Shown here: positions 2,446 to 37,773 of the stretch, piece by piece
How the letters are laid out: every line of letters starts with the position of its first letter
How positions within the stretch are numbered: the first letter of the stretch is position 1
Source: a phage
Length of the DNA: 64,000 bases
Reading direction: 5' to 3' (one strand)
Sequence record: NC_103192.1
Notes under the pieces: model-generated
What the model saw: the letters and a program-made list of their open reading frames with translations, nothing else
What the model was told of the DNA's origin: nothing
Database searches by the model: none
Program-made: the position numbers and the translations under genes

Positions 2446-2512
2446 AAATTATCAACACAGGGGGTTGCAAAACCTCCTTTGGCGTGATAAAATAATCCAC
2501 ATGGGGAATAAG

Positions 2513-3912: not shown

Positions 3913-3933
3913 TCTGCTTAATAGGGGAAAATA

Positions 3934-4308
3934 ATGATCACCACTCAATATTCTGATATCGTGCTCGGCAAAGTAGATGCAAGCGATGCAGGTTTCAACT
4001 TTAAAGAGATTGAAATTACCCTTACTGCTGATCACGTTGCTGGCGCAGTAGTTACCAAAACTGGCACTCTGGCTAATCAAGATGGCACAGATACCTTTGG
4101 TGTACTGGTTGACCGCGCTCTTCTGCCTGACGATTCTGGTAAAGTTAATCTGGCAGAGCCTCTGAAAGTTGGCGAGAAGTATAAACTGGTTGTTGCTGTT
4201 CGTGGCGTTACTTTCGCTAAAAAACATCTTAAAGTGGCTGGCGGCACGGCTGCACCTGCTGCAGTTCTGGAAGCTCTCGAAGCCAAAGGCAACAAAGTTC
4301 AGGAATAA
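3934..4308 (+). CDS. head decoration-like protein
   Basis: 124 aa, Gly/Ala/Val-rich small protein immediately upstream of the major capsid gene, lambda gpD-like position. Confidence 0.4.
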   Translation: MITTQYSDIVLGKVDASDAGFNFKEIEITLTADHVAGAVVTKTGTLANQDGTDTFGVLVDRALLPDDSGKVNLAEPLKVGEKYKLVVAVRGVTFAKKHLKVAGGTAAPAAVLEALEAKGNKVQE

Positions 4309-4354
4309 TCCTAGATCTTTGGGAAACAAATTTTAAAGTTATTTGGAGAAAATA

Positions 4355-5356
4355 ATGCGTAAAGATGATTTTGGTATTGTTGATTTAGGTGCTACTCTTG
4401 AACTGGTTCCGCGCCAATATCGCCTGATCACTGGTATGGATCTGTTTGAAACCCATCTCGGCACCTCAACAATCGCACAGATCGAACGTGTTGATGAAGT
4501 GGTTGGTGATATCGCCGCTCGCCGTCGTGGTGGTGAACGTAACTACGTTGATAGTGAACGTGCACAGATCAAAAACCTGAACATCCCGTTCTTCCCGCTG
4601 GATAAGGGCATTACTGCTGCGGACGTTCAGAACTTTCGTCGCTACTTCACCCCAGATGCACCGAAAACTGTGCAAGACGTGGTTACTCGTGTAGTTCGTC
4701 GTATTCGTCTGAGCCACGAAACCCTGCGTGAAAAAGCTCTTTTTTCTGCAATTCTGGGTAAATCCTATGCACCTGGTGACAAAACTTGCCAGTATGACTA
4801 TTACAAACTGTGGGGCGTTTCCCAGAAATCTATCGAAATCGATCCTAAAAATGCAGCACAGGACCCGATGGAAGTAATCGAAGATGCACGTCTGCACATT
4901 GCTCTGCAGGCTGGCGACAACGCTGGTGCTTACAACATCATCGCGCTGTGCTCTCCGAAATTCTTCTCTGCACTGGTTCATCATCCGCTGGTAGAGCTGG
5001 CTTACACCTACTACAGCTCTTCTCAGGAACCGCTGCGTCGTCGTCTGGGTGCAGGTGGCGAACAGAGCATTTACCGTGTGTTCGAACACAAAGGCATGAC
5101 CTTCATCGAAGACATCTCTGGTAACATTCCGGACGGTGAGGCTCGCCTGATGCCTATGGGTATCGATCAGATGTTCCAGCTGCACTTTGCTCCAGCTGAC
5201 ACTGTGGAAGATGCAAATACCCCAGCACAAGAACTGTATATGTGGTATAAACACTCTGCCTACCTGAGAGAACAGAAAATCGAATCTGAAACCTCTATGC
5301 TGGCAGTTAACACCCGTCCAGAGCTGGTTGTTAAAGCAACTCTGAAAAGTGAATAA
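4355..5356 (+). CDS. major capsid protein
   Basis: about 333 aa, ATG 4355 with GGAGA RBS (ORF track start 4343 is TTG); strongly biased codon usage; followed by the strongest intrinsic terminator in the window. Confidence 0.7.
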   Translation: MRKDDFGIVDLGATLELVPRQYRLITGMDLFETHLGTSTIAQIERVDEVVGDIAARRRGGERNYVDSERAQIKNLNIPFFPLDKGITAADVQNFRRYFTPDAPKTVQDVVTRVVRRIRLSHETLREKALFSAILGKSYAPGDKTCQYDYYKLWGVSQKSIEIDPKNAAQDPMEVIEDARLHIALQAGDNAGAYNIIALCSPKFFSALVHHPLVELAYTYYSSSQEPLRRRLGAGGEQSIYRVFEHKGMTFIEDISGNIPDGEARLMPMGIDQMFQLHFAPADTVEDANTPAQELYMWYKHSAYLREQKIESETSMLAVNTRPELVVKATLKSE

Positions 5357-5380
5357 TCACTACGGTGATTCATCCCATAT

Positions 5381-5413
5381 GGGGAGGGGGTTCTCCCCCT
5401 CCCCTTTTTATTT
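5381..5413 (+). terminator. rho-independent terminator
   Basis: perfect 10-bp stem GGGGAGGGGG/CCCCCTCCCC, loop TTCT, then TTTTTATTTATT. Confidence 0.8.
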
Positions 5414-5437
5414 ATTAGGGTTTAACAGGAGTGTCCC

Positions 5438-6286
5438 GTGAAGCGAACCGTCTACCCAGTTGAGTATGATCCTCTATTAAGAGTTTTCAACAATCAGTTA
5501 AGTTTTTATCAATTTTTAGCACAATATAACCCAGAAATCAATGTTGGCTTATCAGCCCTGCTGCCACCAACAGAATTCGTTATCGGCAGTGTTCACTATC
5601 CGTGCAGAACGATTGTAGACTTCTTCGAGAAGATTGCAAAACATACAGGCCTGCCAATTGATACTGGTATTTCAACTATCCGTATGGGTGTTATTCTTCT
5701 GTTCTTCACAGAGAACCTTGATGAAAGCACTTTAACACTGCAAAGCGGGGATGTCAATATTACACTCACCCCGTCAGTGTTTAAAGAGGTAGACGCTGCT
5801 TTCCAAGTTTCCGTGGCAGAGGGCCATCTATGGGACCCTGTAGGGATGCCTAAAAAAGTGACCATAAACGATGAGCAATGCAACATTGTTTATGAAGAAG
5901 ATACCCAAACTTTCACCATTGAGTGGCCTAAGAAACGTTCTCAGGTTGTGAATCTTGGGCTGACCTCTACGGTAGCTCCACCGCCTGAACCAGAGCCGGA
6001 GCCGCCTGTAGGTCCTACTGAACCTGGTGGTGGCGGTGAGGAATCCCAAGGCCCGACTGTACCTGAGGAAGGCACTGAGCAGGATCCTGAACAGGCACAA
6101 GAATCAAGATCTTCTCACGGCGATGTTGATGCCATACTGCAGCAAGCCGCAGCTCTTAACAACGAAGATGACAAGAGTGGTTCGAAAGATGCACTCCAAA
6201 CCTTCGCTAAAGAGCACGGTGTTACCTTAAGTAAGGCAAAAACTTTCCAAAATATGATGAAAGATTTTGAGGCTGCACTGGCATAA
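5438..6286 (+). CDS. hypothetical virion protein with Pro/Glu-rich linker
   Basis: 282 aa, GTG start with AGGAG RBS; low-complexity PPPEPEPEPPVGPTEPGGGGEE segment. Confidence 0.45.
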   Translation: MKRTVYPVEYDPLLRVFNNQLSFYQFLAQYNPEINVGLSALLPPTEFVIGSVHYPCRTIVDFFEKIAKHTGLPIDTGISTIRMGVILLFFTENLDESTLTLQSGDVNITLTPSVFKEVDAAFQVSVAEGHLWDPVGMPKKVTINDEQCNIVYEEDTQTFTIEWPKKRSQVVNLGLTSTVAPPPEPEPEPPVGPTEPGGGGEESQGPTVPEEGTEQDPEQAQESRSSHGDVDAILQQAAALNNEDDKSGSKDALQTFAKEHGVTLSKAKTFQNMMKDFEAALA

Positions 6287-6345
6287 TTTTGTTAAGGCCC
6301 CTTCCAAATCAGGAATGGGGCTTTATTTTTACGAGGTATTTTCAA

Positions 6346-6966
6346 ATGGCATGGTATGAAGATGAAGAGATTATCCCGTCACCGCCTAACCATGATGGTG
6401 TAGTCGATACCCCAGAAGAACCCCCAAAAGAAGATCCTGTGCCTCCGGAACCTGATCCAGACCAACCTCTTATTGACATTATGAGGTTATTGCTTGGCAA
6501 TGTTGATGAGGAAACACTCCCTGATGAGGTAATTAAAACATTCCTTGACATGGAGAAGCTGAAACTGAACTATCCGGCGGACCCTGATAAGCTACCCCTG
6601 CTTAAGTACAATGTGCTTGTGCAGCTTGTGCGGTGGCTGATGATGCAGGAAGTGTCCAGTGGTAATGCAAGTATAACTTCCCGTCTGGAAAAAATAGGTG
6701 ATGAGACCATAGAGATTCGTGGTGGATCTACCTACTCCCAATGGAAGGATTTCCTTGATTGGCTGCTGGCACACCCAGACTATGTAGATTCTGAGCTAGA
6801 TGCTTACAGCAGAATGATTATCATTGGTGGTGTTCGTGTAGACGAAGGGATTCGGGTTAAATTTAATAAAAACAGCAACGGACCGTTCGATGTCCAGGGG
6901 ATTACACCTATCAGTGGTCTAAATAACCAACCTCCTCGACACCCAAGACGCAAACGCAGTTTTTAA
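6346..6966 (+). CDS. putative head-tail connector / head completion protein
   Basis: ATG 6346 with GAGG RBS (track start 6289 is TTG inside a hairpin); position after capsid genes; acidic Pro-rich N-terminus. Confidence 0.4.
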   Translation: MAWYEDEEIIPSPPNHDGVVDTPEEPPKEDPVPPEPDPDQPLIDIMRLLLGNVDEETLPDEVIKTFLDMEKLKLNYPADPDKLPLLKYNVLVQLVRWLMMQEVSSGNASITSRLEKIGDETIEIRGGSTYSQWKDFLDWLLAHPDYVDSELDAYSRMIIIGGVRVDEGIRVKFNKNSNGPFDVQGITPISGLNNQPPRHPRRKRSF

Positions 6967-8546: not shown

Positions 8547-9923
8547 ATGCCATATTTAGATAAAGTGGTAGATGTTACAGTTAACCTCGGAACCCAACCT
8601 ATTGACACTGTAGGTTTCGAAACTCCCCTGTTCATCGCTATCCACAACAACTTTACTGAGCGAGCTCGTGTATATGCGGAGCTGGATCAGATGGTGGAGG
8701 ATGGTTTCGCACAAGGCTCTGCGGCGTATGAGTTTGCAGCAAAAGCTTTTGGTGGTGTATTCCCTCCACAATACGTTATGATCGGCAGACAGGCTAAAGA
8801 AAAAACCACCGTAGATTTTAAAGGTATTGCTGCTGCAGCCGATACCGATGTCGTAATGACTATTGCAAAAGGTGGCTACAATACTTCTTTGATAGTTCCT
8901 ATCTCTGGTGGGACAGGTGCAACTCAGATTGCAGAATCAATGAAGACTAAAATCGAAGCAGATGATAACTTGAACGATATCACTGTAGAGGCTGCTGATG
9001 GTGTTATCACCATCACTGGTGACTGTACTGTTGGTTATCATACTGGTAACTATACAATCAAAAATATCGCCAGTTCTGAAAAACCTTCTACAGTAGTTGA
9101 TAAGATCAATGCTGAGCGTGATAATTGGTACTTCCTGTGCCATGAAGACCACACCGACATTGAAGCATGTGCTAAGTGGGCTCAGGCCAATTATAAGCTG
9201 CACGTCTACTCTACTGCAGAAGATGTGACTGGCAAAGATAGTAACATCGCTACCAAACTGAAAGCTGCACAATATGACAGTGTTGGCATGTACGATCCTC
9301 GTGCAGATAAGGACTTCCCGGAGGGTGGTATCATAGGTGCTATGGCATCCAACGATCCGTCCTACGGTGACAGCTTGCACCTAAAACAGATGCCAGGTGT
9401 GATTGCACCATCTCTGACTTTAACTCAGCGTATGGCGATTTGGGAAAACCACGTTAACTTCTACAGAATGATTAACGGTGTTGGCGCTTTCTGGGAAGGT
9501 AAGTGTGCTTCAGGTCAGTATGCAGACGCTATTCGTTTTGCACACTGGATCAAGTTCAGATCTGAAGAATCCATGTTTGGGTACATGCATCGCCGCTCCA
9601 ATATGGGTTTAAGTATGAAGATGTCTGATGATGATCTTCCGGTTATCAAGTCTGTTCTGATGAACAACCCGATCAATACTGGCATTAAGAATGGCGCGAT
9701 CCTGACAGGTTTTGACGAAGACAACAATGTGTTCTACGACCCGATCATCACAGTTCCTAAACGTGCAGAGATCCCAACCAATCAGTTGGCTGCTCGTGTT
9801 CTGGAAGGTGTGAAAGTAGAACTGGTGTATAATAACGCCCTGCACTTCGTTCGTATCCGGATCAACGTCCTTCTGGACAAAGTTGGTTCTAAATCCACCA
9901 ATGCTGTTGCAATGACTGAATAA
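8547..9923 (+). CDS. putative tail sheath protein
   Basis: 458 aa, strong RBS; immediately followed by a 157-aa tube-sized gene, then chaperones and tape measure (myovirus order); no diagnostic motif verified. Confidence 0.5.
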   Translation: MPYLDKVVDVTVNLGTQPIDTVGFETPLFIAIHNNFTERARVYAELDQMVEDGFAQGSAAYEFAAKAFGGVFPPQYVMIGRQAKEKTTVDFKGIAAAADTDVVMTIAKGGYNTSLIVPISGGTGATQIAESMKTKIEADDNLNDITVEAADGVITITGDCTVGYHTGNYTIKNIASSEKPSTVVDKINAERDNWYFLCHEDHTDIEACAKWAQANYKLHVYSTAEDVTGKDSNIATKLKAAQYDSVGMYDPRADKDFPEGGIIGAMASNDPSYGDSLHLKQMPGVIAPSLTLTQRMAIWENHVNFYRMINGVGAFWEGKCASGQYADAIRFAHWIKFRSEESMFGYMHRRSNMGLSMKMSDDDLPVIKSVLMNNPINTGIKNGAILTGFDEDNNVFYDPIITVPKRAEIPTNQLAARVLEGVKVELVYNNALHFVRIRINVLLDKVGSKSTNAVAMTE

Positions 9924-9933
9924 GGAAGCCTAG

Positions 9934-10407
9934 ATGGAAACTCAAATTTTAACTCCTTATGCGTATGACCCTAAAAAGGTCAAACTGTATCTGATGCAGC
10001 AGCGTGTCACTGGCTTCGCTGCTGACACCAAGATTGTTGTTTCAAGAAACGAAGACAACATCTACCCTCATGTTGGTGTGGATGGCGAAATGTCTGCAGC
10101 CCTGTCTCGTAACCAATCTGGTGTTATGACTGTGTCTTTGCAGAACACTTCTGTATGGAACGCTTACCTTTCTGACTGGCAGAAACAGGCATCTATTACT
10201 GGTCTGGTATTCTTCCCGGTTCTACTGGAAGGTAGCCAGGGTCCTGGTATTGCTACAATCGGTTGGATCCAGAAACAGCCTGACCTGACTTACGGAACTG
10301 AAGTAGGTCAACTGGACTGGGATATCGGTATTCTGGATGCATGGCTCAACCGTGACAACATCACTGGTGCTCTCACTGGCCTCGCAGGTCTTGCAGGTAT
10401 TATCTAA
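9934..10407 (+). CDS. putative tail tube protein
   Basis: 157 aa, position between sheath-like gene and chaperones; followed by strong terminator. Confidence 0.5.
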   Translation: METQILTPYAYDPKKVKLYLMQQRVTGFAADTKIVVSRNEDNIYPHVGVDGEMSAALSRNQSGVMTVSLQNTSVWNAYLSDWQKQASITGLVFFPVLLEGSQGPGIATIGWIQKQPDLTYGTEVGQLDWDIGILDAWLNRDNITGALTGLAGLAGII

Positions 10408-10423
10408 GAGCACACCATAGCAT

Positions 10424-10456
10424 AGGCCTCACCTTCGGGTGGGGCTTTTTGCTTTT
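10424..10456 (+). terminator. rho-independent terminator with UUCG tetraloop
   Basis: stem GCCTCACC/GGTGGGGC (one G-U pair), loop TTCG, then TTTTTGCTTTT. Confidence 0.75.
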
Positions 10457-10462
10457 AGGGTT

Positions 10463-10496
10463 TTGACATATTTGTTTGTTTTTAGTATCCTATAAT
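10463..10496 (+). promoter_or_regulatory. promoter region with consensus -35 TTGACA
   Basis: TTGACA 10463-10468; -10 ambiguous (TAGTAT at 15-nt or TATAAT at 22-nt spacing). Confidence 0.4.
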
Positions 10497-10512
10497 AAAG
10501 GAGGAGACAGTC

Positions 10513-12135
10513 ATGGCTAAATTGAGTGCAGAAAGGTTTATCGAAAAAGCTCGTAGGGTTCACGGAGATAAGTACGACTATTCTCTTATAGAATACAAAA
10601 CATGCAAAGATAAGATAGAAATAGTCTGCAATACCTGTGGTAACCACTTCAACCAGACACCGGATAACCATATAAATCTAAAAAGAGGGTGCCCTGTTTG
10701 TGGAGCTGAGAGATCTGCAAAATCAAGAAAGGGTAAGAAATTCCCCCATGAGCGTGGTAACAGGTGCACTACAGAAGAGTGGATCAAGAAGGTACTAAAA
10801 AGATACCCTGAAAATGCTGAAAAGTATGATTATAGTCATGTAGTGTACAAGACCTCTGGAGATAAGGTTGAGATTCATTGCAAAATGTGCGGAAGAATAA
10901 TGCACCAGAAACCTAGCAAGCATTTATCAGGGCAAGGATGCAAGACTTGCGCAGCAAGATCTGTTTCTGCGAAAAAAGTTCCTAGCTTCCAAGAAATAGT
11001 TGAGAGATGTGTAGAAGTGCATGGTAGTGATTATGAGTATTTTGAAGACTCTTATGTGAACACCTCAACACCTATGATGATGCGCCACAAAGAGTGTGGG
11101 AATATCTTCATGCAGCGTCCTGAATTCCATTACGGGAAAGGACAAGGATGCCCTCGTTGCTGTCGAAATCAGTCTAATGGTGAGAAAGAGCTCCTGACGT
11201 TCATTAAAAGTGTGTATAGCGGCGATATTGAAGAGAACGTGCGTATTCTGGACAACTTTAAGGATCCTTCCAAGAAAAAGATGGAGCTGGACATTTATGT
11301 TCCGGAGCTTAAGCTTGCTGTGGAATATAATGGTGCCTACTGGCACTCTGTAGACAGTAAGGGGAAATGGTACCACATCCTGAAAAGGAAGGCCTGTGAA
11401 AAACAAGGTATTCGCATGTTGTCTATCTGGGATTGTGATTGGCAGGATGCTCGGAAAAGACCTATCATTGAGAGATATCTCAAGAATGCTTTAGGAGTCA
11501 AAGACGAGAAGACCGTCTATGCCAGAAAGTGCACAGTTAAAGATGTGGACAATAAAACTTACCGTGACTTTATGGAGAAAAACCACATTCAAGGGTATGC
11601 CCCCGCCAAGGAAGTGAAGAAGGGTCTGTTTACATCTGACGGCGAACTGGTAGCTTGTATGAGTTTTAAAATACTGAAAAACAGAGATCAAAAGGTAACC
11701 CCTTTCGTTATGTGGGATATGGTAAGGTATGCAACAAGCTGTAACGTTCCCGGTGGGCGTAGTAAGCTGTTTAAGCATATCCGAGAAGAGTTTAAGATGG
11801 ATCATGTTCAATCCTTCCTTGACAGAGATTACTTCACAGGCGTGTCCTATAAGGAGGATGGCTGGATTTTGGCAGAGGACGATCAGGTGTCTACTAGCTT
11901 CTGGAGCTACCGTGGTGGCAGAATGCCGAGGCAGGCGTGGTGGAAGTCAAACATCCCAGAGACACTGAAGCATCTCGGGTTGGACGAGTCCTTATACGAT
12001 CCTGAGAAAACACAAGAGTGGAATGCCAAAAATGCAGGCTGCTATATCCTTGAAAACAGTGGCAACTCCCGCTTTGAATGGCACAGCGATGAAGGTAAAA
12101 ATGATCCTGCATACTTGGATTGGTTGAAAGGTTAA
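10513..12135 (+). CDS. free-standing homing-endonuclease-like protein
   Basis: 540 aa; three N-terminal repeats each with paired CxxC motifs (CNTCGN...GCPVCG; CKMCGR...GCKTC; HKECGN...GCPRCC); central ELDIYVPELKLAVEYNGAYWHS resembles a PD-(D/E)xK (Vsr-like) nuclease core; own promoter and terminator. Confidence 0.5.
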   Translation: MAKLSAERFIEKARRVHGDKYDYSLIEYKTCKDKIEIVCNTCGNHFNQTPDNHINLKRGCPVCGAERSAKSRKGKKFPHERGNRCTTEEWIKKVLKRYPENAEKYDYSHVVYKTSGDKVEIHCKMCGRIMHQKPSKHLSGQGCKTCAARSVSAKKVPSFQEIVERCVEVHGSDYEYFEDSYVNTSTPMMMRHKECGNIFMQRPEFHYGKGQGCPRCCRNQSNGEKELLTFIKSVYSGDIEENVRILDNFKDPSKKKMELDIYVPELKLAVEYNGAYWHSVDSKGKWYHILKRKACEKQGIRMLSIWDCDWQDARKRPIIERYLKNALGVKDEKTVYARKCTVKDVDNKTYRDFMEKNHIQGYAPAKEVKKGLFTSDGELVACMSFKILKNRDQKVTPFVMWDMVRYATSCNVPGGRSKLFKHIREEFKMDHVQSFLDRDYFTGVSYKEDGWILAEDDQVSTSFWSYRGGRMPRQAWWKSNIPETLKHLGLDESLYDPEKTQEWNAKNAGCYILENSGNSRFEWHSDEGKNDPAYLDWLKG

Positions 12136-26940: not shown

Positions 26941-27492
26941 ATGATTAGAGCGCCATTAGATAATTTATTTCTTGAAAAGCTGGAGCTTGATGGTGTTGAG
27001 ATCTTAATTGCTGCAAAGTTGGAGCTACCGACAGGAACTGTCAGGGTGTGTTCAGGAACCGGTGTTGTAGTAATTGAGGGGCAACATTTTATAGGGATAG
27101 GTGGATCAGCAACATTAACTGCTGTGTCTGAGAAAGATGCCACCAACTTCGGATCTGTGGTAGCGACATTGAACGGGTTTGATCCTAAGTATGTGGGTGA
27201 TCTACTGAAGACGGAGTATTCTGGTTGTCGTGCCACGTTGTACATTACCGCTATGGAGAATGGTCTGCCTGTTACAACCAATGGCTTGTTTGACGGCCTT
27301 ATAACAGATATGGCTATTCAGACAGGTGAGAATAGTGCTTTGTCCATATCCATCTCTTCCATCTTCAACAGTTGGTTAAGAGGTTTTCCTTATCGGTACA
27401 CGGAGGAAAGCCACAGCTCAAGAAACGATAATGACAGATTTTTTAAATATGTGGATCAGGTGGCGAGCCGCCCGATCATTTGGGAGGTTTAA
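26941..27492 (+). CDS. hypothetical tail tip protein
   Basis: ATG 26941 with GAGGA RBS (track start 26926 is TTG). Confidence 0.4.
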   Translation: MIRAPLDNLFLEKLELDGVEILIAAKLELPTGTVRVCSGTGVVVIEGQHFIGIGGSATLTAVSEKDATNFGSVVATLNGFDPKYVGDLLKTEYSGCRATLYITAMENGLPVTTNGLFDGLITDMAIQTGENSALSISISSIFNSWLRGFPYRYTEESHSSRNDNDRFFKYVDQVASRPIIWEV

Positions 27493-27917
27493 TGAGCACA
27501 CGCCCTCGTTTAGTGGATTGGCAAGAAAGATTGTGGAAAGTGTTTGACGAAGAGGCCACCATACCTTTTGAATGGGGATTCCACGATTGCTGCACCTTTG
27601 CAGCTAAGTGTGTTGATGCCCAATACGGAACAGATTTTCTTTCTAACTTCGAAGGAACGTATAAAACAGAGTTGGAAAGCAAAAGATGGTGCATGCTCCG
27701 TTTCAAAACCACACACCTGCCTACTATTTTTGATCTCTTTATGACTCGACTAGATACTCCTAAACAGGTTCAGCGTGGCGATATTGTTATCTTCGAGGGT
27801 CTGAACGGGCTCACCGCTGGTGTGTTCTGGAACAACCAGATTTGGGCGAAAGGTGATAAAGGGGTCTTTATGTTCGATATGAAAGATTCTATCGTTGTTG
27901 ATGTCTGGAGGTATTAA
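27492..27917 (+). CDS. NlpC/P60-like tail protein (gpK-like)
   Basis: 141 aa; Cys motif WGFHDCCTFAAKC and later GDIVIF...G resemble the papain-like NlpC/P60 catalytic core; ATG 27492 with GGGAGG RBS. Confidence 0.45.
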   Translation: MSTRPRLVDWQERLWKVFDEEATIPFEWGFHDCCTFAAKCVDAQYGTDFLSNFEGTYKTELESKRWCMLRFKTTHLPTIFDLFMTRLDTPKQVQRGDIVIFEGLNGLTAGVFWNNQIWAKGDKGVFMFDMKDSIVVDVWRY

Positions 27918-30900
27918 TGCCAATTGCAATGATTGATAACATCGTTGCTTCTGCAAGATCTTCAAGTTATGACTGGAACGCATCCAAGGCAGCTCTGGCT
28001 GACAGCCTGAACACTGTTACCACCAGAACTCTGGATAAGATTTTCGAAGGAAACAAATCTTACAGGAGTCAGCAAGATAGACAAAAACTTCTCAGATCTT
28101 CTGCTGCACCTTGCTCTGTAGTGTATGGGAAGACACGCACATCTGGGTTGCTTGCGTTTTTGGAGCAGGACAGGGACAGAACCCTTCATTGTGCTATTGT
28201 TCTTGCCAATCATCCCTTGGAAGGTATAGAAGATATACTTATCGACGGTAATCCTATTTCTTCGTATGGCGATTTGGTATCGTGGGAGTTACATACCGAC
28301 AGGAAAACCTCTGATCCTTTCATGGGCACACACTGCCCTTCATGGTCACCAGACATGATAGGCAGAGGGATCAGTTGGCTACGTGCCAGCTTCAAGTTTG
28401 ACCCTAACAAGTTTCCTTTTGGGTTGCCAAACGTTACACTTGTCAAGGTTGGTAAAAAATGCTATGATCCTCGTATCAGTAAAGAGGTGTATACCAATAA
28501 CGCGGCCTTGGTGATCCTAGACTATTTAAGAACGTACCTCAAATGTCCTGACGAAACCATTAACTGGGAGTCCTTCAAGGAGGCTGCCAACATATGCGAC
28601 GAGGCGGTAAAAAACGCTGACGGAACCAGTGAGCGACGTTACACCATTAACGGTGAGTTTGACATGGATGAGGCCCCAGCAAGCATTATGGCAGAAATGC
28701 TGAAAGCTTGTGGTGCAGATCTCAGCTATGTAGCTGGTAAGTATGGTTTGCTGGTTGGTGCATACTATGGCCCGGCAACAATGACACTGAGTGAGGATTG
28801 TGTCTGTGGTGAGGTCAAGATCTATCCGGAAGCCTCATTTGACAAAAGATCCAACACAATAACTGGCAGATTCACCAGTCCTACCAAAGGGTATTCTGAA
28901 ACAGATTTTCCATCAGTGTTTGTCCCAGAGTGGATAGAGAAGGATGGAGAAAGAAAGATAATCGATATAGACTATCGCTTTGTTACCAGCCCTTATCAAG
29001 CTCAGCGTGTTTCTGCAATCTTCTTAAGACGTGCCAGAGCTGGCAGGATTATTGAAGTCACCTGCAATATGCGAGGTTTTAAATTTAAGCCTGGCCGTTA
29101 TGTTACAATGGACCTCCCAAGTATTGGTATAGTGGGCCAAGAAATGAGGGTTCTTGAATGGGAGTTTACCAAAAAGGGTGGTGTCAAGGTAAAACTCCGT
29201 CAAGATGCTAAAGAGTGGAATGATGCCACAGGGCAACTTCCGGATTCTGGCGATGTAGATATTCCGATATCTCCATCTGGTGTAGCTCAACCGCAAAACT
29301 TCAGATATTCCGTTCTCCAAGCTGGAGAAGTAACTCACGGTGTTTTGGCTTGGGACAACGTTGGGACCTACGCTCAAAATATTGTGCAGGTAAGAAAGAA
29401 CGGAGAGATTGTTTGGACAGCACAAACAGTTGAGCAGTTTGTCCGAGTAGAAGGCTTGACCAAAGGGTCATACACAGCAACCGTGGTTGCAACATCTTAT
29501 AAAGGTGGCGTATCTCCGGAAGCATATTGTGAGTTCAACATTCAGGCACCTGAAGCTCCTGTTTCTGTAGAGGTTAAGCAAGGATACTTTGCTATCACCT
29601 TGATTCCGCATAGTAGGGATTTAGCAAGTGTTAGCACTCAGTACGACTTTTGGACATCTGGGATGACAAGATTGCCAGATACCAGTGATGCAACCGTTAC
29701 TTCAAAAGCCACCCGCATGGGTGTTGGTTCAACTTGGACATCTGAAGGTCTGCAGAACGATAAGATTTATTATTGGTATATTCGAACCACAAATGCTTTT
29801 GGTAGTTCTCAGTTTGTAGAGTGTGCTGCACGCTGCTATACCTCCATTGAAGATTTGATGCCTCAGATAGATGCTGAATTTAAAAAGACAGAAACTTATA
29901 AAGAGTTGATGAGCACTTTAGATTCCTCTATTGAAGAGGTTGAAAATCGTGTCACAGAACTTAACAAGTACATGGACGGAAGGGTAGATGAGGCATTCCA
30001 ACAACTTGGGGATAGGATAGGTGCTGTAGTTACAGAGACAACTCAGAAGTTTGAGGATGTCAATGGCAATATTACAGCGCTGGATAAGAAACTTGTTGCT
30101 GCACAGAACAAGTTCACCAACGATCTGAACACTGAAAGTGGAAGACTGGCATCCCTGATTGAGACAACCAATAAAGCAACCACTGATCTTCTGAACAAAA
30201 AGACAGAGGCTTTAGACGAGAAATTGGTTGCAGCCAAAGGGGAGTTGGTAGAACAAATAGGTGGAGTGGAGAGCGGATACCTTGCCGGAGATAAAACTCT
30301 GGATGGCAAGATCAATACCCAGAGAACAGAACTTGACGCAAGCATCTTGAGCACCAATAAGGCGACAGTGGATCTTCTTAACAGGACCTCTGAAACTCTG
30401 GATCAAAAGATCAGTCAGACAAACGCGACGGTATCTAAGAACTATACCACCCTTGACGGTAAGATAACTACCGCAAAAACTGATCTCAATACCTTGATTG
30501 CCAATACCAACAAGGCTACCACAGATTTGTTGAATCAGAAAACCTCTGCACTGTCAGAGCAGATAACTTCTGCACGTGGGGAGATTTCTACCAACAAACA
30601 GGCGATTAAGGATTTGGATGGGAAGCTGACCTCCACAAAAACAGCACTGGACGCTACAATCTCCGATACCAACAAAGCAACTGTGGATCTTATTAACGGC
30701 ACAGCGTCAGCTATTCGTCAAGAACTTGCTGTTGCTAAGCAGGAGATCATTAATGATGTTGGGGATGTATCAGAGCTAAGAGCTGCAGTGGCTACAACAT
30801 CTAAGGCTGTGACCGACTTAGAGGGCAAAGTAAATGCTCAATGGGGCACAAAAATACAGGTAGACTCCGCAGGGAATAAGTATGTGGCAGGTATCCAATT

Positions 30901-31756
30901 GGGCATGGAAGGCTCTGGAGGCCAAGTTCAATCATACTTCATGGTTAGTGCAAACAACTTTGCGGTATACAACCCCGGAAATGGAACAGCAACCCTTGCT
31001 TTCGCAATCAAGAACAACCAAGCGTTCTTGAAAGATGCTTTTATAGAGAACGGGACGATCTCTTCTGCCAAGATTGCACAAGAAATTTCGTCAAACAACT
31101 ACGATGGCAACGGGTACCATAAATACGGTCGGTATATTAACAAGAACGGGCACGCCCAGTTTATGGATGTGTGGGTGAAAGGTAATATCAACGCTAGTGC
31201 AGGTAACTTCACAGGGGCAGTTAACGCCACCAGTGGTACCTTCCGTGGAGATGTTTATGCCAATAATGGTAGCTTTAGAGGCACCATAGATGCAACAGGA
31301 GGTACATTCCGTGGACGTGTAGAAGCTTCCGTTATCCGTGCTAACCAGTTCGAAGGTGCAATCGTTGCACATAGGACCTATGGTGACTGCCCTCCGGTAT
31401 ATAACTCGCAGCAGAGGGTTTGCCGTTGGAGGTGGAGATATGTGGACAACGTGCAAGGCCAAGGTAAAAACGTAACATTCTTCTTTAAACTGAACGGTAC
31501 TCGTGCCAACTCTCAACTAAATGCGTGGATAGCTGGTCACCAATTACTTGCTGGCAAGAAGTACGGAAACGATAACGATGGCATGTGTGCAGTTGGGATA
31601 ACAGGTCTAGGTGAACAAACTATAGACATTATTATCGAGATTTACACACCATGGTCAACAGGGAACGTGACAGGCATTACAATATCTTGTCCTACAGTCG
31701 TTGTAAGTCGTTCTAACTCAAGTTTCCAAGGTCCTTGGAATGAGTCTCACGACTAA
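27917..31756 (+). CDS. lambda-J-like central tail fibre / host specificity protein (Phage-tail_3 domain)
   Basis: 1279 aa; N-terminal region (SVVYGKTRTSGLLAFLE...LHCAIVLANHPLEGIEDILIDGNPI...GRYVTMDLPSIGIVGQEMRVLEWEF) matches the gpJ-type domain pattern; central tandem coiled-coil repeats; Gly-rich C-terminus. Confidence 0.65.
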   Translation: MPIAMIDNIVASARSSSYDWNASKAALADSLNTVTTRTLDKIFEGNKSYRSQQDRQKLLRSSAAPCSVVYGKTRTSGLLAFLEQDRDRTLHCAIVLANHPLEGIEDILIDGNPISSYGDLVSWELHTDRKTSDPFMGTHCPSWSPDMIGRGISWLRASFKFDPNKFPFGLPNVTLVKVGKKCYDPRISKEVYTNNAALVILDYLRTYLKCPDETINWESFKEAANICDEAVKNADGTSERRYTINGEFDMDEAPASIMAEMLKACGADLSYVAGKYGLLVGAYYGPATMTLSEDCVCGEVKIYPEASFDKRSNTITGRFTSPTKGYSETDFPSVFVPEWIEKDGERKIIDIDYRFVTSPYQAQRVSAIFLRRARAGRIIEVTCNMRGFKFKPGRYVTMDLPSIGIVGQEMRVLEWEFTKKGGVKVKLRQDAKEWNDATGQLPDSGDVDIPISPSGVAQPQNFRYSVLQAGEVTHGVLAWDNVGTYAQNIVQVRKNGEIVWTAQTVEQFVRVEGLTKGSYTATVVATSYKGGVSPEAYCEFNIQAPEAPVSVEVKQGYFAITLIPHSRDLASVSTQYDFWTSGMTRLPDTSDATVTSKATRMGVGSTWTSEGLQNDKIYYWYIRTTNAFGSSQFVECAARCYTSIEDLMPQIDAEFKKTETYKELMSTLDSSIEEVENRVTELNKYMDGRVDEAFQQLGDRIGAVVTETTQKFEDVNGNITALDKKLVAAQNKFTNDLNTESGRLASLIETTNKATTDLLNKKTEALDEKLVAAKGELVEQIGGVESGYLAGDKTLDGKINTQRTELDASILSTNKATVDLLNRTSETLDQKISQTNATVSKNYTTLDGKITTAKTDLNTLIANTNKATTDLLNQKTSALSEQITSARGEISTNKQAIKDLDGKLTSTKTALDATISDTNKATVDLINGTASAIRQELAVAKQEIINDVGDVSELRAAVATTSKAVTDLEGKVNAQWGTKIQVDSAGNKYVAGIQLGMEGSGGQVQSYFMVSANNFAVYNPGNGTATLAFAIKNNQAFLKDAFIENGTISSAKIAQEISSNNYDGNGYHKYGRYINKNGHAQFMDVWVKGNINASAGNFTGAVNATSGTFRGDVYANNGSFRGTIDATGGTFRGRVEASVIRANQFEGAIVAHRTYGDCPPVYNSQQRVCRWRWRYVDNVQGQGKNVTFFFKLNGTRANSQLNAWIAGHQLLAGKKYGNDNDGMCAVGITGLGEQTIDIIIEIYTPWSTGNVTGITISCPTVVVSRSNSSFQGPWNESHD
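30064..30790 (+). repeat. tandem ~50-aa coiled-coil repeats inside the J-like gene
   Basis: repeated unit ...LDGKI.T.KT.L...I..TNKAT.DLLN... at least four times at protein level, with correspondingly similar DNA units. Confidence 0.5.
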
Positions 31757-31860: not shown

Positions 31861-33351
31861 GTGGCTAAGTATGGATTGACAGAGGCTGGTTTCGTTATAC
31901 CAACCCTAAATGACCTAATCGTTGAAACTAAGCAAAGCCTGATCCGTGCTTTTGGCGAAAACTTCAACGTACAGAGTAACTCCGTTGCAGATAAGCTGAC
32001 CACTATCTTCAACGAGCGAGAGTATCAACTTATTCTTATGGCAGCATCTGTATACGCATCGCAGACGCTGTATGGGGCAGAAGGTATTTACCTGGATGAG
32101 CTTCTTGGAAGACAGGGTATTTACCGAAGAGGCCGTTCTAAATCATCAGGTACCTGCCAGTTGACAATCAACACAACTGTGCCGTACAATATGATTTATG
32201 ATTCCAAAACTTATACGCTGGACAGTGGCAACTTTGTTCTTAGCAACGATGTGCAAGTAGCAGGGAATCTTATTGCTCACAGAATAAATGCTCCAGACCT
32301 AAGGATTGGGAAATACAACTTTCAAATTACCAACCAGACAGATGGAAGCATCAAAACAAAAAGTCTGGTTTTAACCGATAAGTCTCTGGACTCTTCTGAT
32401 TTACCAAGCTTTTACGGCGAGATTAAGCAATTCATTGTAGATAATACAACCCTGTTGAACGACGATTTGATTCAGATCGATATGTTGACAGGAACGTTGT
32501 GGATAGGATACAATTCGAATCTTGATCAAGTTGGGCTTAATAGCAGAGTAGATTTCAGAGTATCCCCGATTGTAGGTGAAAGAACTATCACCCTAGATGT
32601 TATCGCTAACGAGGCTGGTGAGCTGTCAAGAGAGGCAGAAACCGTGACAACAATGTCGCCTACTCCCAGCGGATTTATCAAGCTTACCAACCGAGAAAGA
32701 TTCAATGAGGGCAGGGATGTTGAGAAGGACTCAGAGTATCGCTTAAGAGCTTCCAGCACTAAACAGTTGACATCTAAAGCTACCCGTCCTGCAATCCTTA
32801 GCGCTGTAAGCGAGGTGAAAGGTGTTGAGAAAGTAAGAGTGTTCTCTAACAACACCGATAAAACGGATGCGAAAGGTATACCACCTTATAAGTTTCAAGT
32901 GGTGGTGTTTGGTGGTGCAACAGAGGATATCTGTCAGGCGCTGTATCAAACCATAGCTTGCACAAACAGAACTTATGGGAATATCTTCTACGATATTACC
33001 ACATCAGACGGTCAAACTGAAAGGATTTATTACTCCAAGGCAAATACCTACCGCCTAGATGTAAGAATTACCTACTCAGGTGCTGCGCTTTCCACAACCG
33101 AAAAAGATGCCATTACAGAGGCTCTTTTGCAGGTTGTTAACGGCTTGGATGTTGCCGATACGTTGTACAATATCCAATTGGTCGGTGCTGCATCAGCTGC
33201 TGTGTCAATAGGCAGATTTAACAGACTGGTAATTCAAGTTAAACCTGTTGGAGCCTCTGATGAAGCTTACACTACAAACGATATTGTTGCGAACATGACC
33301 GAGGTGTTTGACCTCGATGAAAGTAATATAACTTTCCAACAAACTATTTAA
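31861..33351 (+). CDS. baseplate J-like protein (gp6/gpJ family)
   Basis: 496 aa, GTG start with GGAGGAG RBS; N-terminal pattern (...GFVIPTLNDLIVETK...GAEGIYLDELLGRQGIYRRG...) recalled as baseplate-J-like. Confidence 0.5.
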   Translation: MAKYGLTEAGFVIPTLNDLIVETKQSLIRAFGENFNVQSNSVADKLTTIFNEREYQLILMAASVYASQTLYGAEGIYLDELLGRQGIYRRGRSKSSGTCQLTINTTVPYNMIYDSKTYTLDSGNFVLSNDVQVAGNLIAHRINAPDLRIGKYNFQITNQTDGSIKTKSLVLTDKSLDSSDLPSFYGEIKQFIVDNTTLLNDDLIQIDMLTGTLWIGYNSNLDQVGLNSRVDFRVSPIVGERTITLDVIANEAGELSREAETVTTMSPTPSGFIKLTNRERFNEGRDVEKDSEYRLRASSTKQLTSKATRPAILSAVSEVKGVEKVRVFSNNTDKTDAKGIPPYKFQVVVFGGATEDICQALYQTIACTNRTYGNIFYDITTSDGQTERIYYSKANTYRLDVRITYSGAALSTTEKDAITEALLQVVNGLDVADTLYNIQLVGAASAAVSIGRFNRLVIQVKPVGASDEAYTTNDIVANMTEVFDLDESNITFQQTI

Positions 33352-33362
33352 GGCGGCGGGAT

Positions 33363-34049
33363 ATGGCAGAGATTAAGTCGGATGTTAACCACATCCACAC
33401 TCTGCCAGATTTTGTTCAGGGGGGTCTTGATTACCTCCCTGGGGATTTTCTGGCTGAGAAGGTTAATTTAGTCACATTCTTAACCGTATACCTTAAAAGG
33501 TTGGAGAATGTTGATAAAATGCTGGTAGGCTTGGCTGAAGGAAGATTGCTTAACAATGCCAGCGGGAGATACCTTGACGAAGTTGGTAATCAACTTGGTA
33601 TTCTTAGGAATGGTCTTTCAGACGCGGATTTTCGTGCTACGCTGATTATTCAGCAGGCAGCATCATCAAGAGGTGGTACTCGCGAAGATGTCATCTCCAC
33701 CTTGCGACAATTGTTCGGAAGAGACAATTTCGATACGTGGAAAGGTGACAACTTTAGATTTGACATAAATATTAGAAAAACTTGCTTCGACATATTACAG
33801 TCCATCGATCAGATCTTAGATATGCTGCCATTGCCTTGTCATTTGCGTCTTACAGAATCGCAAGGGCAAGCTTTTGGTTTTGAAGGAGACTCTACAGCTC
33901 TTGGCTTCGGATCAGTGTGGGAAGAAAACCAGTTCGGAGTTGGTGGGCTGGCTACTTTGCTGTATGTTCCTGACGTAAGACCTGATTGGGACACCACAAC
34001 TATTTATTGTGAAAGTATTACAGTAAACGCAACTAGACAGGAGGGTTAA
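33363..34049 (+). CDS. putative baseplate wedge protein (gpI-like)
   Basis: 228 aa, immediately downstream of the J-like baseplate gene; synteny only. Confidence 0.4.
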   Translation: MAEIKSDVNHIHTLPDFVQGGLDYLPGDFLAEKVNLVTFLTVYLKRLENVDKMLVGLAEGRLLNNASGRYLDEVGNQLGILRNGLSDADFRATLIIQQAASSRGGTREDVISTLRQLFGRDNFDTWKGDNFRFDINIRKTCFDILQSIDQILDMLPLPCHLRLTESQGQAFGFEGDSTALGFGSVWEENQFGVGGLATLLYVPDVRPDWDTTTIYCESITVNATRQEG

Positions 34050-36121
34050 TGGCAACAGCTGTTTTTAAACCTTACCGTGATTACTCTACGATGGCTGCAC
34101 GGTTTCATTACCGCACAGTTCAGGATACTGCAGTTCCAGGTAGGGATTATGATCATGTTGAGGGAGATGTAACTATCCCGGTTGGAGCAACCAGTATTGA
34201 GATCCCTGTAGAAATTGTTGACAAATTGCCAAACAGGTTGCCAAGAAGCTTCTTTATGGAGTTTTCATCAAACTCCCAAGGGGTTATGATTGGAACACAA
34301 AGAGCGAAATGTACAATAGTTTCAGATGAGAATCTTGACAGAATATCTTGGGATACCGTTGAGGAGAGAATGTTTCACCCAAGATATTGGGTTACAACCA
34401 CACAGCAGACTGAAAGCACCTGCATTGTTGCGGATAATAACTGCTGTATTAACCGTTTAGTGTCAAGAACATATGGAGGCATGGCTGGGTGCATTTGGGA
34501 AACAGTTGACAAGTATGACCATTTCGGCATTGGATTTGATGATCACTACGAGATGAGAAACACCAAGCTTTGGTTCAGAATGTCAATAACCAATGCCAGC
34601 AACTTCTCCACCCCTGAAAAGATGATTATGACTGTAGACCTTGTTGACGGCACAATCATCTATGTTCCTTTAGCTCAATATGCTGTCAGCATCTCAGAGG
34701 ATAAGAATGTTGCAGAAATTCATATTGATTTCGAGGACTGCGTCGGGATGGACCAGAACAACAATATGATGGGTGTTGATCCTCGGCAGGTGAGAAAGAT
34801 TTTAATACCGCTTATGCCTAAAGATTGGGTAAGTAATAGCACAGACCCAAGAACGGAAAATGTAGAGTGCGAGTTGCGTCTAGATCTGCTTCAGCCGGAC
34901 ACAGGCTGGAAAATGATGCAACTTAACAATATCCAGGTGAAAGAGCACGACGTCGGGATCTGCACAGCATATGACGATATGTGGAACGTATCCCCTTTAA
35001 GGGTGTTGAGCAATATCAAGCGTCTGGGCTATACCGGAACCATAAATCATTATGTTGGTATGAGTCATTATTATGACTACACATGGTCAGGAACCCAATG
35101 GTCTATAAACAAAACAGGGGCTCTAAACGCTGCAGCTTATAAATGGCATGATGATTTTATGTACAATGCCAAACGACATGACTTCGACGTTATGCAGTCT
35201 GTAAGCTTCGAGCTTTATAGCGATGCCTGTCCGTTGGAATGGACCCAGAGAGACTGGAACGATAACTACGCTAAAACAGGATATACACCTTGTAGCTACC
35301 TCCTGTCTCCAACCATTGAAGAGGGTATGAATTTCCTTACTGCAGTATTTAAGAATTTTGCATCAGCCGCTATGAGAAACAACCTGCCAGTGATTATGCA
35401 GGTTGGTGAACCGTGGTGGTGGTACAATACCGATACTCGTAGACCTTGTATTTATGATTACCCTACAAAGCAGGCGTTTTATGATGAGACAGGTGAGTAT
35501 GCATTAGATATTGGGACTATTGACGATCCTAAAACTGGTGGTGTTTACGACAAGTATGTAGCATTTTGTCGTGGTAAGCTTGGCGCTCGTATTGCGGCTA
35601 TTTCAAAGGCAATAAAAGCACACGCTGCATCGGCTCAGATGACAGCTTTACTGTTTTTCCCCACTATTATGGAAACCGAGCTTACGCAAAAACTGAACCT
35701 TGCTGACCAATATAAAAAGGAAGCAGGCGCTCTTGATTTCTTCTGCACTGAGTGCTACGATTGGGTGATGCAGGGAGGTATTGAAAAGGCAAAAGAGTCT
35801 GTAAACATACCTATCGTTAAGTTAGGTTGGAAACCGTCTGAAATACAATACCTTGCAGGGTTCGTTCCTAGCAAAGAGCTTGCTCCGGTATATGGCTACG
35901 ACCCAACCAGGAATTACCAAGAATTTTTATGGAGATGTATTTGCGGAAACATGGCAACCATAGAGTATAGATACCCTGAGGTAAAACAGTATGTGTGGGC
36001 ATACCCGCAAGTAATGTCTGACAGCATCACTGTTACCGCCAGAGATTCTACCGTGCTTCATATGGGACAGGTTGCTCTGAAAGGGTATGTAGAAGATGTT
36101 GTCCCGCCAGACTTCTCATAA
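34049..36121 (+). CDS. tail fibre/spike protein with N-terminal Calx-beta-like domain
   Basis: 690 aa; residues ~15-95 (FHYRTVQDTAVPGRDYDHVEGDVTIPVGATSIEIPVEIVDK) fit the Calx-beta pattern; Trp/Tyr-rich C-terminal body. Confidence 0.5.
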   Translation: MATAVFKPYRDYSTMAARFHYRTVQDTAVPGRDYDHVEGDVTIPVGATSIEIPVEIVDKLPNRLPRSFFMEFSSNSQGVMIGTQRAKCTIVSDENLDRISWDTVEERMFHPRYWVTTTQQTESTCIVADNNCCINRLVSRTYGGMAGCIWETVDKYDHFGIGFDDHYEMRNTKLWFRMSITNASNFSTPEKMIMTVDLVDGTIIYVPLAQYAVSISEDKNVAEIHIDFEDCVGMDQNNNMMGVDPRQVRKILIPLMPKDWVSNSTDPRTENVECELRLDLLQPDTGWKMMQLNNIQVKEHDVGICTAYDDMWNVSPLRVLSNIKRLGYTGTINHYVGMSHYYDYTWSGTQWSINKTGALNAAAYKWHDDFMYNAKRHDFDVMQSVSFELYSDACPLEWTQRDWNDNYAKTGYTPCSYLLSPTIEEGMNFLTAVFKNFASAAMRNNLPVIMQVGEPWWWYNTDTRRPCIYDYPTKQAFYDETGEYALDIGTIDDPKTGGVYDKYVAFCRGKLGARIAAISKAIKAHAASAQMTALLFFPTIMETELTQKLNLADQYKKEAGALDFFCTECYDWVMQGGIEKAKESVNIPIVKLGWKPSEIQYLAGFVPSKELAPVYGYDPTRNYQEFLWRCICGNMATIEYRYPEVKQYVWAYPQVMSDSITVTARDSTVLHMGQVALKGYVEDVVPPDFS

Positions 36122-36133
36122 TCAGGAGATAAA

Positions 36134-37174
36134 ATGTCAAAACCTAGTTTTCCATTAGAGATTTGGGCAGAGGAGGATCAGGTTCTGCCTAACACCCACA
36201 GACAGAACAGGCTACGCCCGATTGATGATTTGTGGAGAAAAGGTTGGGATCTTGGTCAAAAGCCATCCTGTGAAGAACTTAACTATATTTTCAATATGCT
36301 CGGGACTTGGGCAAAATACATTGCTGACGAGCAGATCCCCGCTCAAGAAGGCCGTTATCTGGTACGTGATAATAACTTGAGTGATCTTTTGAACATCCCT
36401 GTTGCCCGTAGAAACCTTGGTATTATTACTAAGGAAGAGGCAGACGCCAGGTATGTGAAAGTTGCAGGTGATACAATGACAGGCCCATTGGGTTTGCAAC
36501 GTATCAACTTTAAAGCTGCCGATACAGATAAGGCTTGGATAGAGACAACTATTGGCCCAGATAAGACAACCCTTGACTTTGGGTTAAGTGATAATATTGG
36601 GGCGTTCGATGATGGTGGCACATCTACAGTAGATGCGTTCCGTTGGAGATTCCAGCCAACTCAGCCGGACATTAACCCAGAGTTCACTCTGATGTACCTG
36701 AACGCAATCACGGCTAATCGTGCGTTGTTGAAAGTGGTGGGCAATGTTGAAGTTGTTGATAACATGCGATGTAATAACCTCACCATTAGCAGCACAGCAA
36801 CATTCACCAACTGCAATGTAGCTAGTCAGTTGACGGCTGGGTCAGTATATGTCAATGGTGGTGCAAGTTGTGACAGTATGGTTGTAAGAAGCCAGCATTG
36901 TGTTGTCGGTAACAGAAATGTGGTGCGCTCTGTGAATGGAGTGACGGCTAACGGCAACGGAGATGTAACGATCACCATCCCGCAGACAGGTGTACAGGAT
37001 ATCAGAATCGGTGCAAGACTTGTTGACGGTGTTTCTGAATCTCCGGTTCGCAACGGTTATGTTGTCACAGGTTGGCATTTTGGTGATAAAAAAGAGATGC
37101 GTGGTTCAACCTACTGGGCAGGACCTTTACAAAAACTTGTAAATGGTCAATGGATCACTGTTAATTATGCGTAG
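36134..37174 (+). CDS. tail fibre protein, paralogue A
   Basis: 346 aa; contains GDTMTGPL fibre motif; ends ...YWAGPLQKLVNGQWITVNYA; paralogous along its whole length to the 38189 gene product. Confidence 0.6.
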   Translation: MSKPSFPLEIWAEEDQVLPNTHRQNRLRPIDDLWRKGWDLGQKPSCEELNYIFNMLGTWAKYIADEQIPAQEGRYLVRDNNLSDLLNIPVARRNLGIITKEEADARYVKVAGDTMTGPLGLQRINFKAADTDKAWIETTIGPDKTTLDFGLSDNIGAFDDGGTSTVDAFRWRFQPTQPDINPEFTLMYLNAITANRALLKVVGNVEVVDNMRCNNLTISSTATFTNCNVASQLTAGSVYVNGGASCDSMVVRSQHCVVGNRNVVRSVNGVTANGNGDVTITIPQTGVQDIRIGARLVDGVSESPVRNGYVVTGWHFGDKKEMRGSTYWAGPLQKLVNGQWITVNYA

Positions 37175-37188
37175 ATCGGAGGACTAGC

Positions 37189-37773
37189 ATGAAAATACTT
37201 CAAGAGTTTAAACTTTACCAGCCGGGATCTGGCGAATACTACACCAACAAGGAGACCAAGGAGCTGACTCCTCAGGAGGTTGAGGATTACACAGCATACA
37301 CTGGATATTTTTTACGTAATGATGATGGCGATTGGTATGTGCAATCACGAACACTGCGACAAGAAAATCCAGGCTGTATCTTCCTACTTGTTGACGAGAA
37401 GGGTATTCTTAAGACATCTACAGAAGAACCTGATGCCTTGTGGCCTGCTCCAGGTCTTCGTGTGGTTATCGCCAAAAAAGAAGAGGTACCAGAAAACATT
37501 ATGCTCCACCACGACGCTTTGCGTTTAGTTGGTGATGAATTTGTCACAGACAATGAATTCTTTGTTCAACAGGCAGAGGGTGTCATAGAGACAGAACTTG
37601 CTTGGGCTACTGCTAGAATTGGTGCCTATCAAGACATGATTGACCTTGAATACGATCTTACTGATGACCAAAAACGCAACATCAGAGATTTGAAAATGTA
37701 CAGGGTAAAACTTCTTGAAATAGATACATCTAAAGCCCCTGACATTTTCTTCCCGGAACGACCTACCCTCTAA
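37189..37773 (+). CDS. tail fibre assembly chaperone (Tfa-like)
   Basis: 194 aa; C-terminal ...AWATARIGAYQDMIDLEYDLTDDQKRNIRDLKMYRVKLLEIDTSKAPDIFFPERP fits the conserved Tfa C-terminal pattern. Confidence 0.55.
   Translation: MKILQEFKLYQPGSGEYYTNKETKELTPQEVEDYTAYTGYFLRNDDGDWYVQSRTLRQENPGCIFLLVDEKGILKTSTEEPDALWPAPGLRVVIAKKEEVPENIMLHHDALRLVGDEFVTDNEFFVQQAEGVIETELAWATARIGAYQDMIDLEYDLTDDQKRNIRDLKMYRVKLLEIDTSKAPDIFFPERPTL

Follow-up and report, generated by a model that had tools for sequence, protein, structure and literature searches.

The 64,000-nucleotide stretch of phage DNA analysed here (sequence record NC_103192.1; hereafter the window) is that of an rV5/FV3-like Escherichia coli myophage of the genus Vequintavirus and carries, on its + strand at positions 34049-36121, an ATG-initiated coding sequence (CDS) for a protein of 690 amino acids, the orthologue of phi92 gp142 and of BASEL bas52_0033. 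The explanation favoured for this product, on balance rather than with assurance, is that it serves as a globular, baseplate-attached receptor-recognition protein with three domains: a Calx-beta sandwich devoid of a calcium site, an NCTSP_N beta-sandwich and a glycoside hydrolase-like (beta/alpha)8 barrel of the triosephosphate isomerase (TIM) type. The second sandwich and the barrel constitute a module that shares its evolutionary origin with the gp65/gp64 non-contractile sheath of phage N4, and this module most likely binds the NGR exopolysaccharide and probably cleaves it. By binding or cleaving NGR, which is WecB- and NfrB-dependent and exported via NfrA, the phage would pass the O-antigen layer and reach a terminal receptor in the lipopolysaccharide (LPS) core. 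The gene is already known; two curated Pfam families cover it, and both the glycosidase-like nature of its product and a probable receptor role are in the literature.

The module was recognized at the level of both sequence and predicted fold. Matches to NCTSP_N (PF23844; residues 108-284, E 3.6e-12, 46.3 bits, profile positions 3-182 of 191) and to TIM-barrel_NCTSP (PF23845; residues 299-658, E 9.8e-80, 268.6 bits, profile positions 2-346 of 348) both exceed the gathering score, stand in order and are nearly full length, which places the protein in the NCTSP family. An AlphaFold2 model of the full-length protein, built from a 50-sequence alignment, has a mean predicted local distance difference test score (pLDDT) of 94.6 and a predicted template-modelling score (pTM) of 0.91; its N-terminal half is all-beta, and residues 303-658 form eight beta-alpha units. 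On this evidence, together with hhalign and hmmsearch comparisons, the all-beta NCTSP_N sandwich spans residues ~103-293 (34355-34927, +) and is homologous to N4 gp65 ~38-250, and the TIM barrel spans residues ~296-665 (34934-36043, +). Foldseek searches of the PDB returned the solved N4 sheath proteins as structural matches (gp64, E 1e-20; gp65, E 4e-12), and a sequence search of the PDB likewise matched gp64 (E 9e-25). An earlier sequence-only reading had placed the open reading frame (ORF) correctly and described its body as aromatic-rich, as it proved to be; tryptophan, tyrosine and phenylalanine make up 14.7% of residues 296-690, compared with 9.1 +/- 1.5% in 22 other ORFs of the window. 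That reading had also taken the product for a phage fibre, a view that the model does not sustain: it consists of three compact globular domains and has no fibrous segment of the beta-helix, coiled-coil or fibre-shaft kind.

An alignment of 50 homologues, reaching down to 27% identity, was used to define the invariant residues of the protein, which comprise D309, D310, H334, Y335, G337, M338, S339, E388, Q451, G453, E454, P455, W456-458, Y469, D470, N550, E568, Y570, W628 and W650. In the model, invariant residues lie at or just past the C-terminal ends of barrel strands beta1 (303-307), beta2 (330-336), beta3 (379-386) and beta4 (449-453), and likewise at those of beta6 (565-568) and beta8 (646-650), on the side of the barrel that bears the active sites of TIM-barrel enzymes. 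The D309-D310 pair follows directly on beta1 (34973-34978, +), and the GMSHY motif (residues 337-341; 35057-35071, +), which keeps its G, M and S in 50 of 50 sequences including the alphaproteobacterial ones, follows beta2. E454, the candidate catalytic acid, stands within an invariant GEPWWW at the end of beta4 (35408-35410, +), and a second candidate catalytic carboxylate, E568, within an invariant E-x-Y-D-W at the end of beta6 (35750-35752, +). A mechanism of the clan GH-A type was considered and rejected; no carboxylate follows beta7 (599-604), which ends in an invariant G604-F605, and the other invariant glutamate at issue, E568, comes after beta6 instead. The suggestion of the sequence-only reading that the body of the protein could be enzymatic thus finds support in a glycoside hydrolase-like barrel in which the C-terminal strand ends carry invariant acidic and aromatic residues. 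Conservation of these residues across unrelated hosts fits conserved chemistry better than it fits the recognition of one glycan, and the chances that the barrel is catalytically active are put at slightly short of even.

After the N4 proteins, the closest fold is that of the C-terminal hydrolase domain (GH153) of PgaB, with which the barrel shares 7% identity; there is no sequence-level match between this domain and the window protein, and a test for membership of CAZy GH153 by sequence was negative. Unlike the window protein, PgaB is periplasmic and of bacterial origin and has a CE4 deacetylase domain on the same chain; its substrate is beta-1,6-linked N-acetylglucosamine (GlcNAc). It works on the exopolysaccharide of a synthase-dependent system, the outer-membrane exporter of which, PgaA, is described as an analogue of NfrA. 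Both proteins have an acidic residue after beta4 of the barrel; D474, which is catalytic in PgaB/BpsB, is located on this strand (PMC5933820), and E454 may be its equivalent, judging from secondary-structure position alone.

The relationship with N4 extends over the entire module. Alignment of the family profile by hhalign paired gp65 52-417 with window residues 102-344 (E 1.9e-20) and gp64 107-411 with window residues 353-663 (E 6.9e-55). With an unfiltered hmmsearch, the matches to gp65 and gp64 tiled the profile with zero overlap and a gap of 12 positions, the boundary between them lying within the barrel loop that joins beta2 to alpha2; gp65 38-417 covers the beta-sandwich and beta1-alpha1-beta2, and gp64 109-410 covers alpha2 to beta8 (window 34352-36037). 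The motifs are divided across the N4 pair, FDD and GMSHY being found in gp65 and E388, GEPWWW and E-x-YDW in gp64. By sequence, then, the similarity to N4 is one of whole-module homology shared out between the products of two adjacent genes (gp65 at 1502-5650 and gp64 at 5683-6936 of the N4 stretch compared). A full barrel was not detected within either N4 chain: hmmsearch with the --max option and a threshold of E <= 100 left the last three-quarters of the profile unmatched by gp65 and its N-terminal part unmatched by gp64, and hhalign of the sub-profiles gave non-significant matches only (E 0.34 and 0.75), one of which set gp65 426-473 on alpha6-beta7-alpha7 of the window protein and is not trusted. 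These data suggest either that the N4 barrel is assembled in trans from gp65 and gp64 or that two paralogous barrels have decayed in complementary parts. The two proteins are known to form a 1:1 heterodimer in the N4 sheath (PMC13434306). In that sheath (PDB 9LC0 and 9YF4), of which gp65 is the major and gp64 the minor component, the homologous module is thus carried on two polypeptides rather than on a single chain as in the window phage. Further differences are the ~965 additional residues of gp65, the lack of a Calx-beta domain in N4, and the setting of the proteins: N4 is a podophage in which gp64/gp65 sheathe the tube, whereas the window protein is encoded within the baseplate cluster of a contractile tail.

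The proposed ligand comes from the literature on host factors. On wecB and nfrB mutants, though not on other wec mutants, the Vequintavirinae, the phi92-like phages and N4 cease to be infective, so that the NGR exopolysaccharide, and not enterobacterial common antigen (ECA), is indicated as the receptor; N4 and the Vequintavirinae therefore rely on the same host factors (PMC8669472). A role as common receptor-binding protein was proposed for the shared protein of these phages in the BASEL paper (PMC8594841), and an NGR-recognizing tail protein is likewise the role proposed for phi92 gp142 and the BASEL orthologues, identical to the one favoured here. Given the dependence of these phages on NGR, as taken from these studies, the 690-residue protein is the probable NGR binder of the window phage. 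The novelty implied by the sequence-only reading does not hold: phi92 gp142 has been called a glycosidase since 2012 (a table citing Schwarzer et al., 2012; PMC5380687), the BASEL orthologues were annotated in similar terms (PMC8594841), and a 2026 preprint (10.64898/2026.04.02.716166) names phi92 gp142 as an example of an NGR-binding protein. The same preprint presents the GMSHY k-mer as a predictive marker of NGR-binding phages and reads the likeness to N4 gp65 as convergent evolution. Since G337, M338 and S339 do not vary among the 50 aligned sequences, alphaproteobacterial and Deinococcus members included, GMSHY is better regarded as a core motif of the fold than as an NGR-specific signature.

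The N-terminal domain (residues ~2-92; 34052-34324, +) is an authentic Calx-beta domain, as had been proposed for residues ~15-95 from the sequence alone. It adopts the seven-strand beta-sandwich fold of NCX1 CBD1 and the integrin beta4 Calx-beta domain and matches PF03160 over residues 17-91 (E 1.3e-5), although the score of 25.6 bits falls just below the gathering score of 27 bits and the first ~38 positions of the profile are unmatched. In contrast, four phi92- and phAPEC8-like orthologues clear the cut-off, at 36.7-42.8 bits, and because these are ~42% identical to the window protein, its own membership of PF03160 follows by transitive homology. The T-A-x-x-G-x-D-Y motif of the NCX1 and integrin beta4 domains is present as TAVPGRDY, and the phmmer alignment to NCX1 runs without gaps across residues 19-72. 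Calcium dependence, which had been suggested along with the domain, was rejected. The Ca2+ ligands of NCX1 CBD1 are E385, D421, D446, D447, E451, E454 and D498-500 (numbering of Nicoll et al. 2006); among these positions, only D421 and D446 are retained in the alignment (as D33 and D58), those of D447, E451 and E454 are occupied by the basic residues K59, R63 and R66, and E385 has no counterpart. Nor are the ligand positions conserved among the orthologues, none of which carries the DDD..E..E motif, N62 being the sole invariant residue of that loop. The domain is therefore a genuine Calx-beta fold but no calcium sensor. Its place beside the module is taken by different domains in other lineages: the rV5-, phi92- and phAPEC8-like myophages have Calx-beta, an 870-residue E. 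coli protein has DUF7941, the Deinococcus member has a CarboxypepD_reg-like domain, and the Sphingomonadales proteins have a C-terminal DUF2460. Such swapping around a constant sandwich-plus-barrel is what one would expect of a virion-specific adaptor on a portable functional module and, coupled with the location of the gene among baseplate genes, it favours a role for Calx-beta as anchor or spacer at the baseplate periphery; the domain most likely attaches the protein to the baseplate or holds it at a distance from it.

Several points weigh against the proposed function. The assignment of NGR in the literature is itself founded on homology to N4 proteins, and in current models of N4 it is the gp66 appendages that bind NGR, while gp65 binds NfrA. 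A 2026 cryo-electron microscopy (cryo-EM) study of phi92 left 'fiber II' unassigned and assigned no virion position to gp142, which it does not mention; nor does it present mass spectrometry of virions. As to catalysis, hydrolytic activity has never been demonstrated for any member of PF23845, and PgaB, the closest characterized fold, is only 7% identical and has an aspartate, not a glutamate, on beta4. Finally, the Calx-beta domain is modelled with higher confidence within the full-length protein (pLDDT 90-94) than alone (79.5), so that it may be an accessory sandwich held rigidly against the body and not a free anchor.

The strongest competing explanation, to which a substantial minority of the weight is given, is that the protein is a non-catalytic lectin, the barrel binding NGR, or some other conserved glycan of the cell surface, but leaving it uncleaved and the acidic and aromatic residues forming no more than a binding groove. 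The history of PgaB lends this some credence, its C-terminal domain having long been seen as a binding module that proved to be active only on long, partially deacetylated polymer (PMC5933820); the homologous module of N4 belongs to a structural sheath (PMC13434306), and the family is one without reported activity. However, the acidic residues that follow the strands show no variation at all among members from E. coli, Sphingomonadales and Deinococcus hosts, and invariance of this kind is easier to account for by conserved chemistry than by the binding of host-specific glycans.

It is improbable that the protein is purely a structural component of the baseplate or collar, retained from an ancestral sheath-like protein and devoid of any receptor role. 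N4 gp64 and gp65 do make a structural sheath (PMC13434306), the gene lies amid baseplate genes, and it is far more conserved than the adjoining fibres (PMC8594841). Nevertheless, the set of residues on the catalytic face is intact in very distant relatives, the module is fused to varied virion adaptors in a manner typical of receptor-binding payloads, and it is the only feature known to be common to the NGR-dependent phage groups.

A deacetylase has also been invoked. In the BASEL records the orthologue bears the annotation 'lateral tail fiber with glycosidase and deacetylase domains', a label originating from a Phyre2 match to 'poly-GlcNAc deacetylase' (PMC8594841). Fold searches with the window protein, however, reach the C-terminal hydrolase domain of PgaB and not its N-terminal deacetylase domain, and neither CE4 nor any other deacetylase family is among the four Pfam matches at E <= 10; the term was probably carried over from the name of PgaB as a whole, given that the fold matches are to the hydrolase domain and no deacetylase hidden Markov model (HMM) was hit. 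The older 'glycosidase' label of phi92 gp142 is closer to the fold. An enzyme that strips acetyl groups from a polymer of N-acetylmannosamine or GlcNAc, in the manner of the G7C tailspike esterase, is thus very hard to defend despite the existing annotation, and deacetylase activity was rejected on the fold and HMM evidence.

The gene is highly conserved and very well sampled among phages. Megablast matched it in 116 phage records, 114 of them at 95-99% nucleotide identity, and by tblastn the protein was at least 95% identical in 116 records. Orthologues from Vequintavirus are 96-99% identical to it, with 98-99% protein identity in over 100 sequenced phages and 96-98% nucleotide identity to 114 or more records, while those of the phi92-like (Justusliebigvirus) and phAPEC8-like (Phapecoctavirus) phages share 42-43% protein identity, the phi92-like ones 42%. 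The length and three-domain architecture of phi92 gp142, bas52_0033 and bas62_0026, Calx-beta domain included, equal those of the window protein. The position of the gene differs in phi92-like genomes, where it lies upstream of the wedge genes; in the window, and in Vequintavirus generally, it lies downstream of them, ahead of the short-fibre gene. In phage JohannJBalmer, for example, the orthologue (9001-11076 of the compared stretch) has moved relative to the wedge genes when set against window positions 31861-37174. Between 16 and 21 GenBank records named 'Campylobacter phage' (e.g., MG065635, MG065647 and MG065690), with Campylobacter jejuni as host, are 96-99% identical to the gene; their genomes are ~137-146 kb, and the host label looks doubtful.

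Homologues of the sandwich-plus-barrel reach beyond these phages to other E. coli phages, to elements of the Sphingomonadales and to a Deinococcus plasmid. The Sphingomonadales proteins are NCTSP_N-TIM-DUF2460 fusions (TIGR02217 family) encoded in clusters that resemble gene transfer agents (GTAs), with 29-31% identity over 80% of the 690-residue query; they possess the same sandwich and barrel with all invariant residues kept, and their genes hold a tail-tip position. DUF2460, their virion-attachment domain, which holds the position of RcGTA g12, is found at the C-terminus, and they are without Calx-beta; their hosts are alphaproteobacteria not known as makers of NGR. Dozens of Sphingomonadales proteins have this module-DUF2460 architecture. 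One from Sphingomonas arenae (JAFFJW010000002.1; 8001-10301 of the compared stretch), in which the module is N-terminal to DUF2460, is encoded within a GTA-like head-tail cluster, after a 188-residue ORF at the tape-measure position and before the Phage_BR0599 and Phage-tail_3 genes.

In the window, the gene is the third of a series in which two baseplate wedge genes are followed by the 690-residue CDS, a short fibre gene and a chaperone gene, all on the + strand. The first (31861-33351) encodes a Baseplate_J-like protein of 496 residues (PF04865; phrog_6, baseplate wedge subunit), and the second (33363-34049) a baseplate protein of 228 residues (phrog_4056, E 2e-103). The start codon of the CDS and the TAA stop of the second gene have an A in common (TAATG), an overlap that suggests translational coupling; a Shine-Dalgarno sequence, AGGAGG (34039-34044, +), stands 4 nucleotides upstream of the ATG. 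The 228-residue protein has 29% identity to the product of a phi92-like gene adjoining the Baseplate_J-like gene, at a wedge-gene position, and this relative occupies the position of wedge genes gp145/gp146 in the phi92 cryo-EM structure. The BASEL records nonetheless name the 228-residue protein 'putative tail terminator protein', at odds with its match to baseplate family phrog_4056. Downstream are the short tail fibre gene (36134-37174; 346 residues; phrog_4465, tail fiber protein, in keeping with the existing record annotation) and the gene for the tail fibre assembly chaperone (37189-37773; 194 residues; Caudo_TAP). Further upstream, a protein of 1279 residues (27917-31756) combines lambda J-type immunoglobulin domains with Phage_Tail_Tip (PF09327, E 8e-37; phrog_31, 'central tail fiber J'), modules that usually belong to non-contractile tails, whereas the window phage is contractile-tailed. 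The 145-residue ORF preceding it (27480-27917) matches DUF6950 (E 2.7e-33) and bears conflicting annotations in different records, as 'cell wall hydrolase protein' or 'putative tail fiber protein'.

At the level of the gene the window adds nothing new, and the residual interest is modest, lying in the possible hydrolase activity and in how the protein relates to the N4 sheath. Annotation and interpretation are nevertheless sharpened in three respects: 'deacetylase' is probably a misnomer, the Calx-beta domain is no calcium sensor, and the likeness to N4 is a homology of the full module within which GMSHY is family-wide. The identification of the N-terminal domain as Calx-beta, the tiling of the profile on gp65 and gp64 and the family-wide occurrence of GMSHY are the additions made here. 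More speculatively, and with the balance of expectation against it, the sandwich-plus-barrel could represent an unrecognized family of active exopolysaccharide hydrolases borne on virions and GTAs, of which the Vequintavirus and phi92 proteins would be the intact, single-chain form that cleaves NGR and in which the N4 barrel would be assembled in trans. Were this so, beta1-alpha1-beta2 would be contributed by gp65 and alpha2 to beta8 by gp64, which would explain the obligate gp64-gp65 heterodimer of the sheath, and the NGR binders of podophages and myophages would be alike by common descent rather than by the convergence recently proposed. A protein that reads NGR is relevant to the prediction of host range and to the design of phage therapy; should it be active, the enzyme in purified form would offer a means of isolating and defining NGR oligosaccharides.

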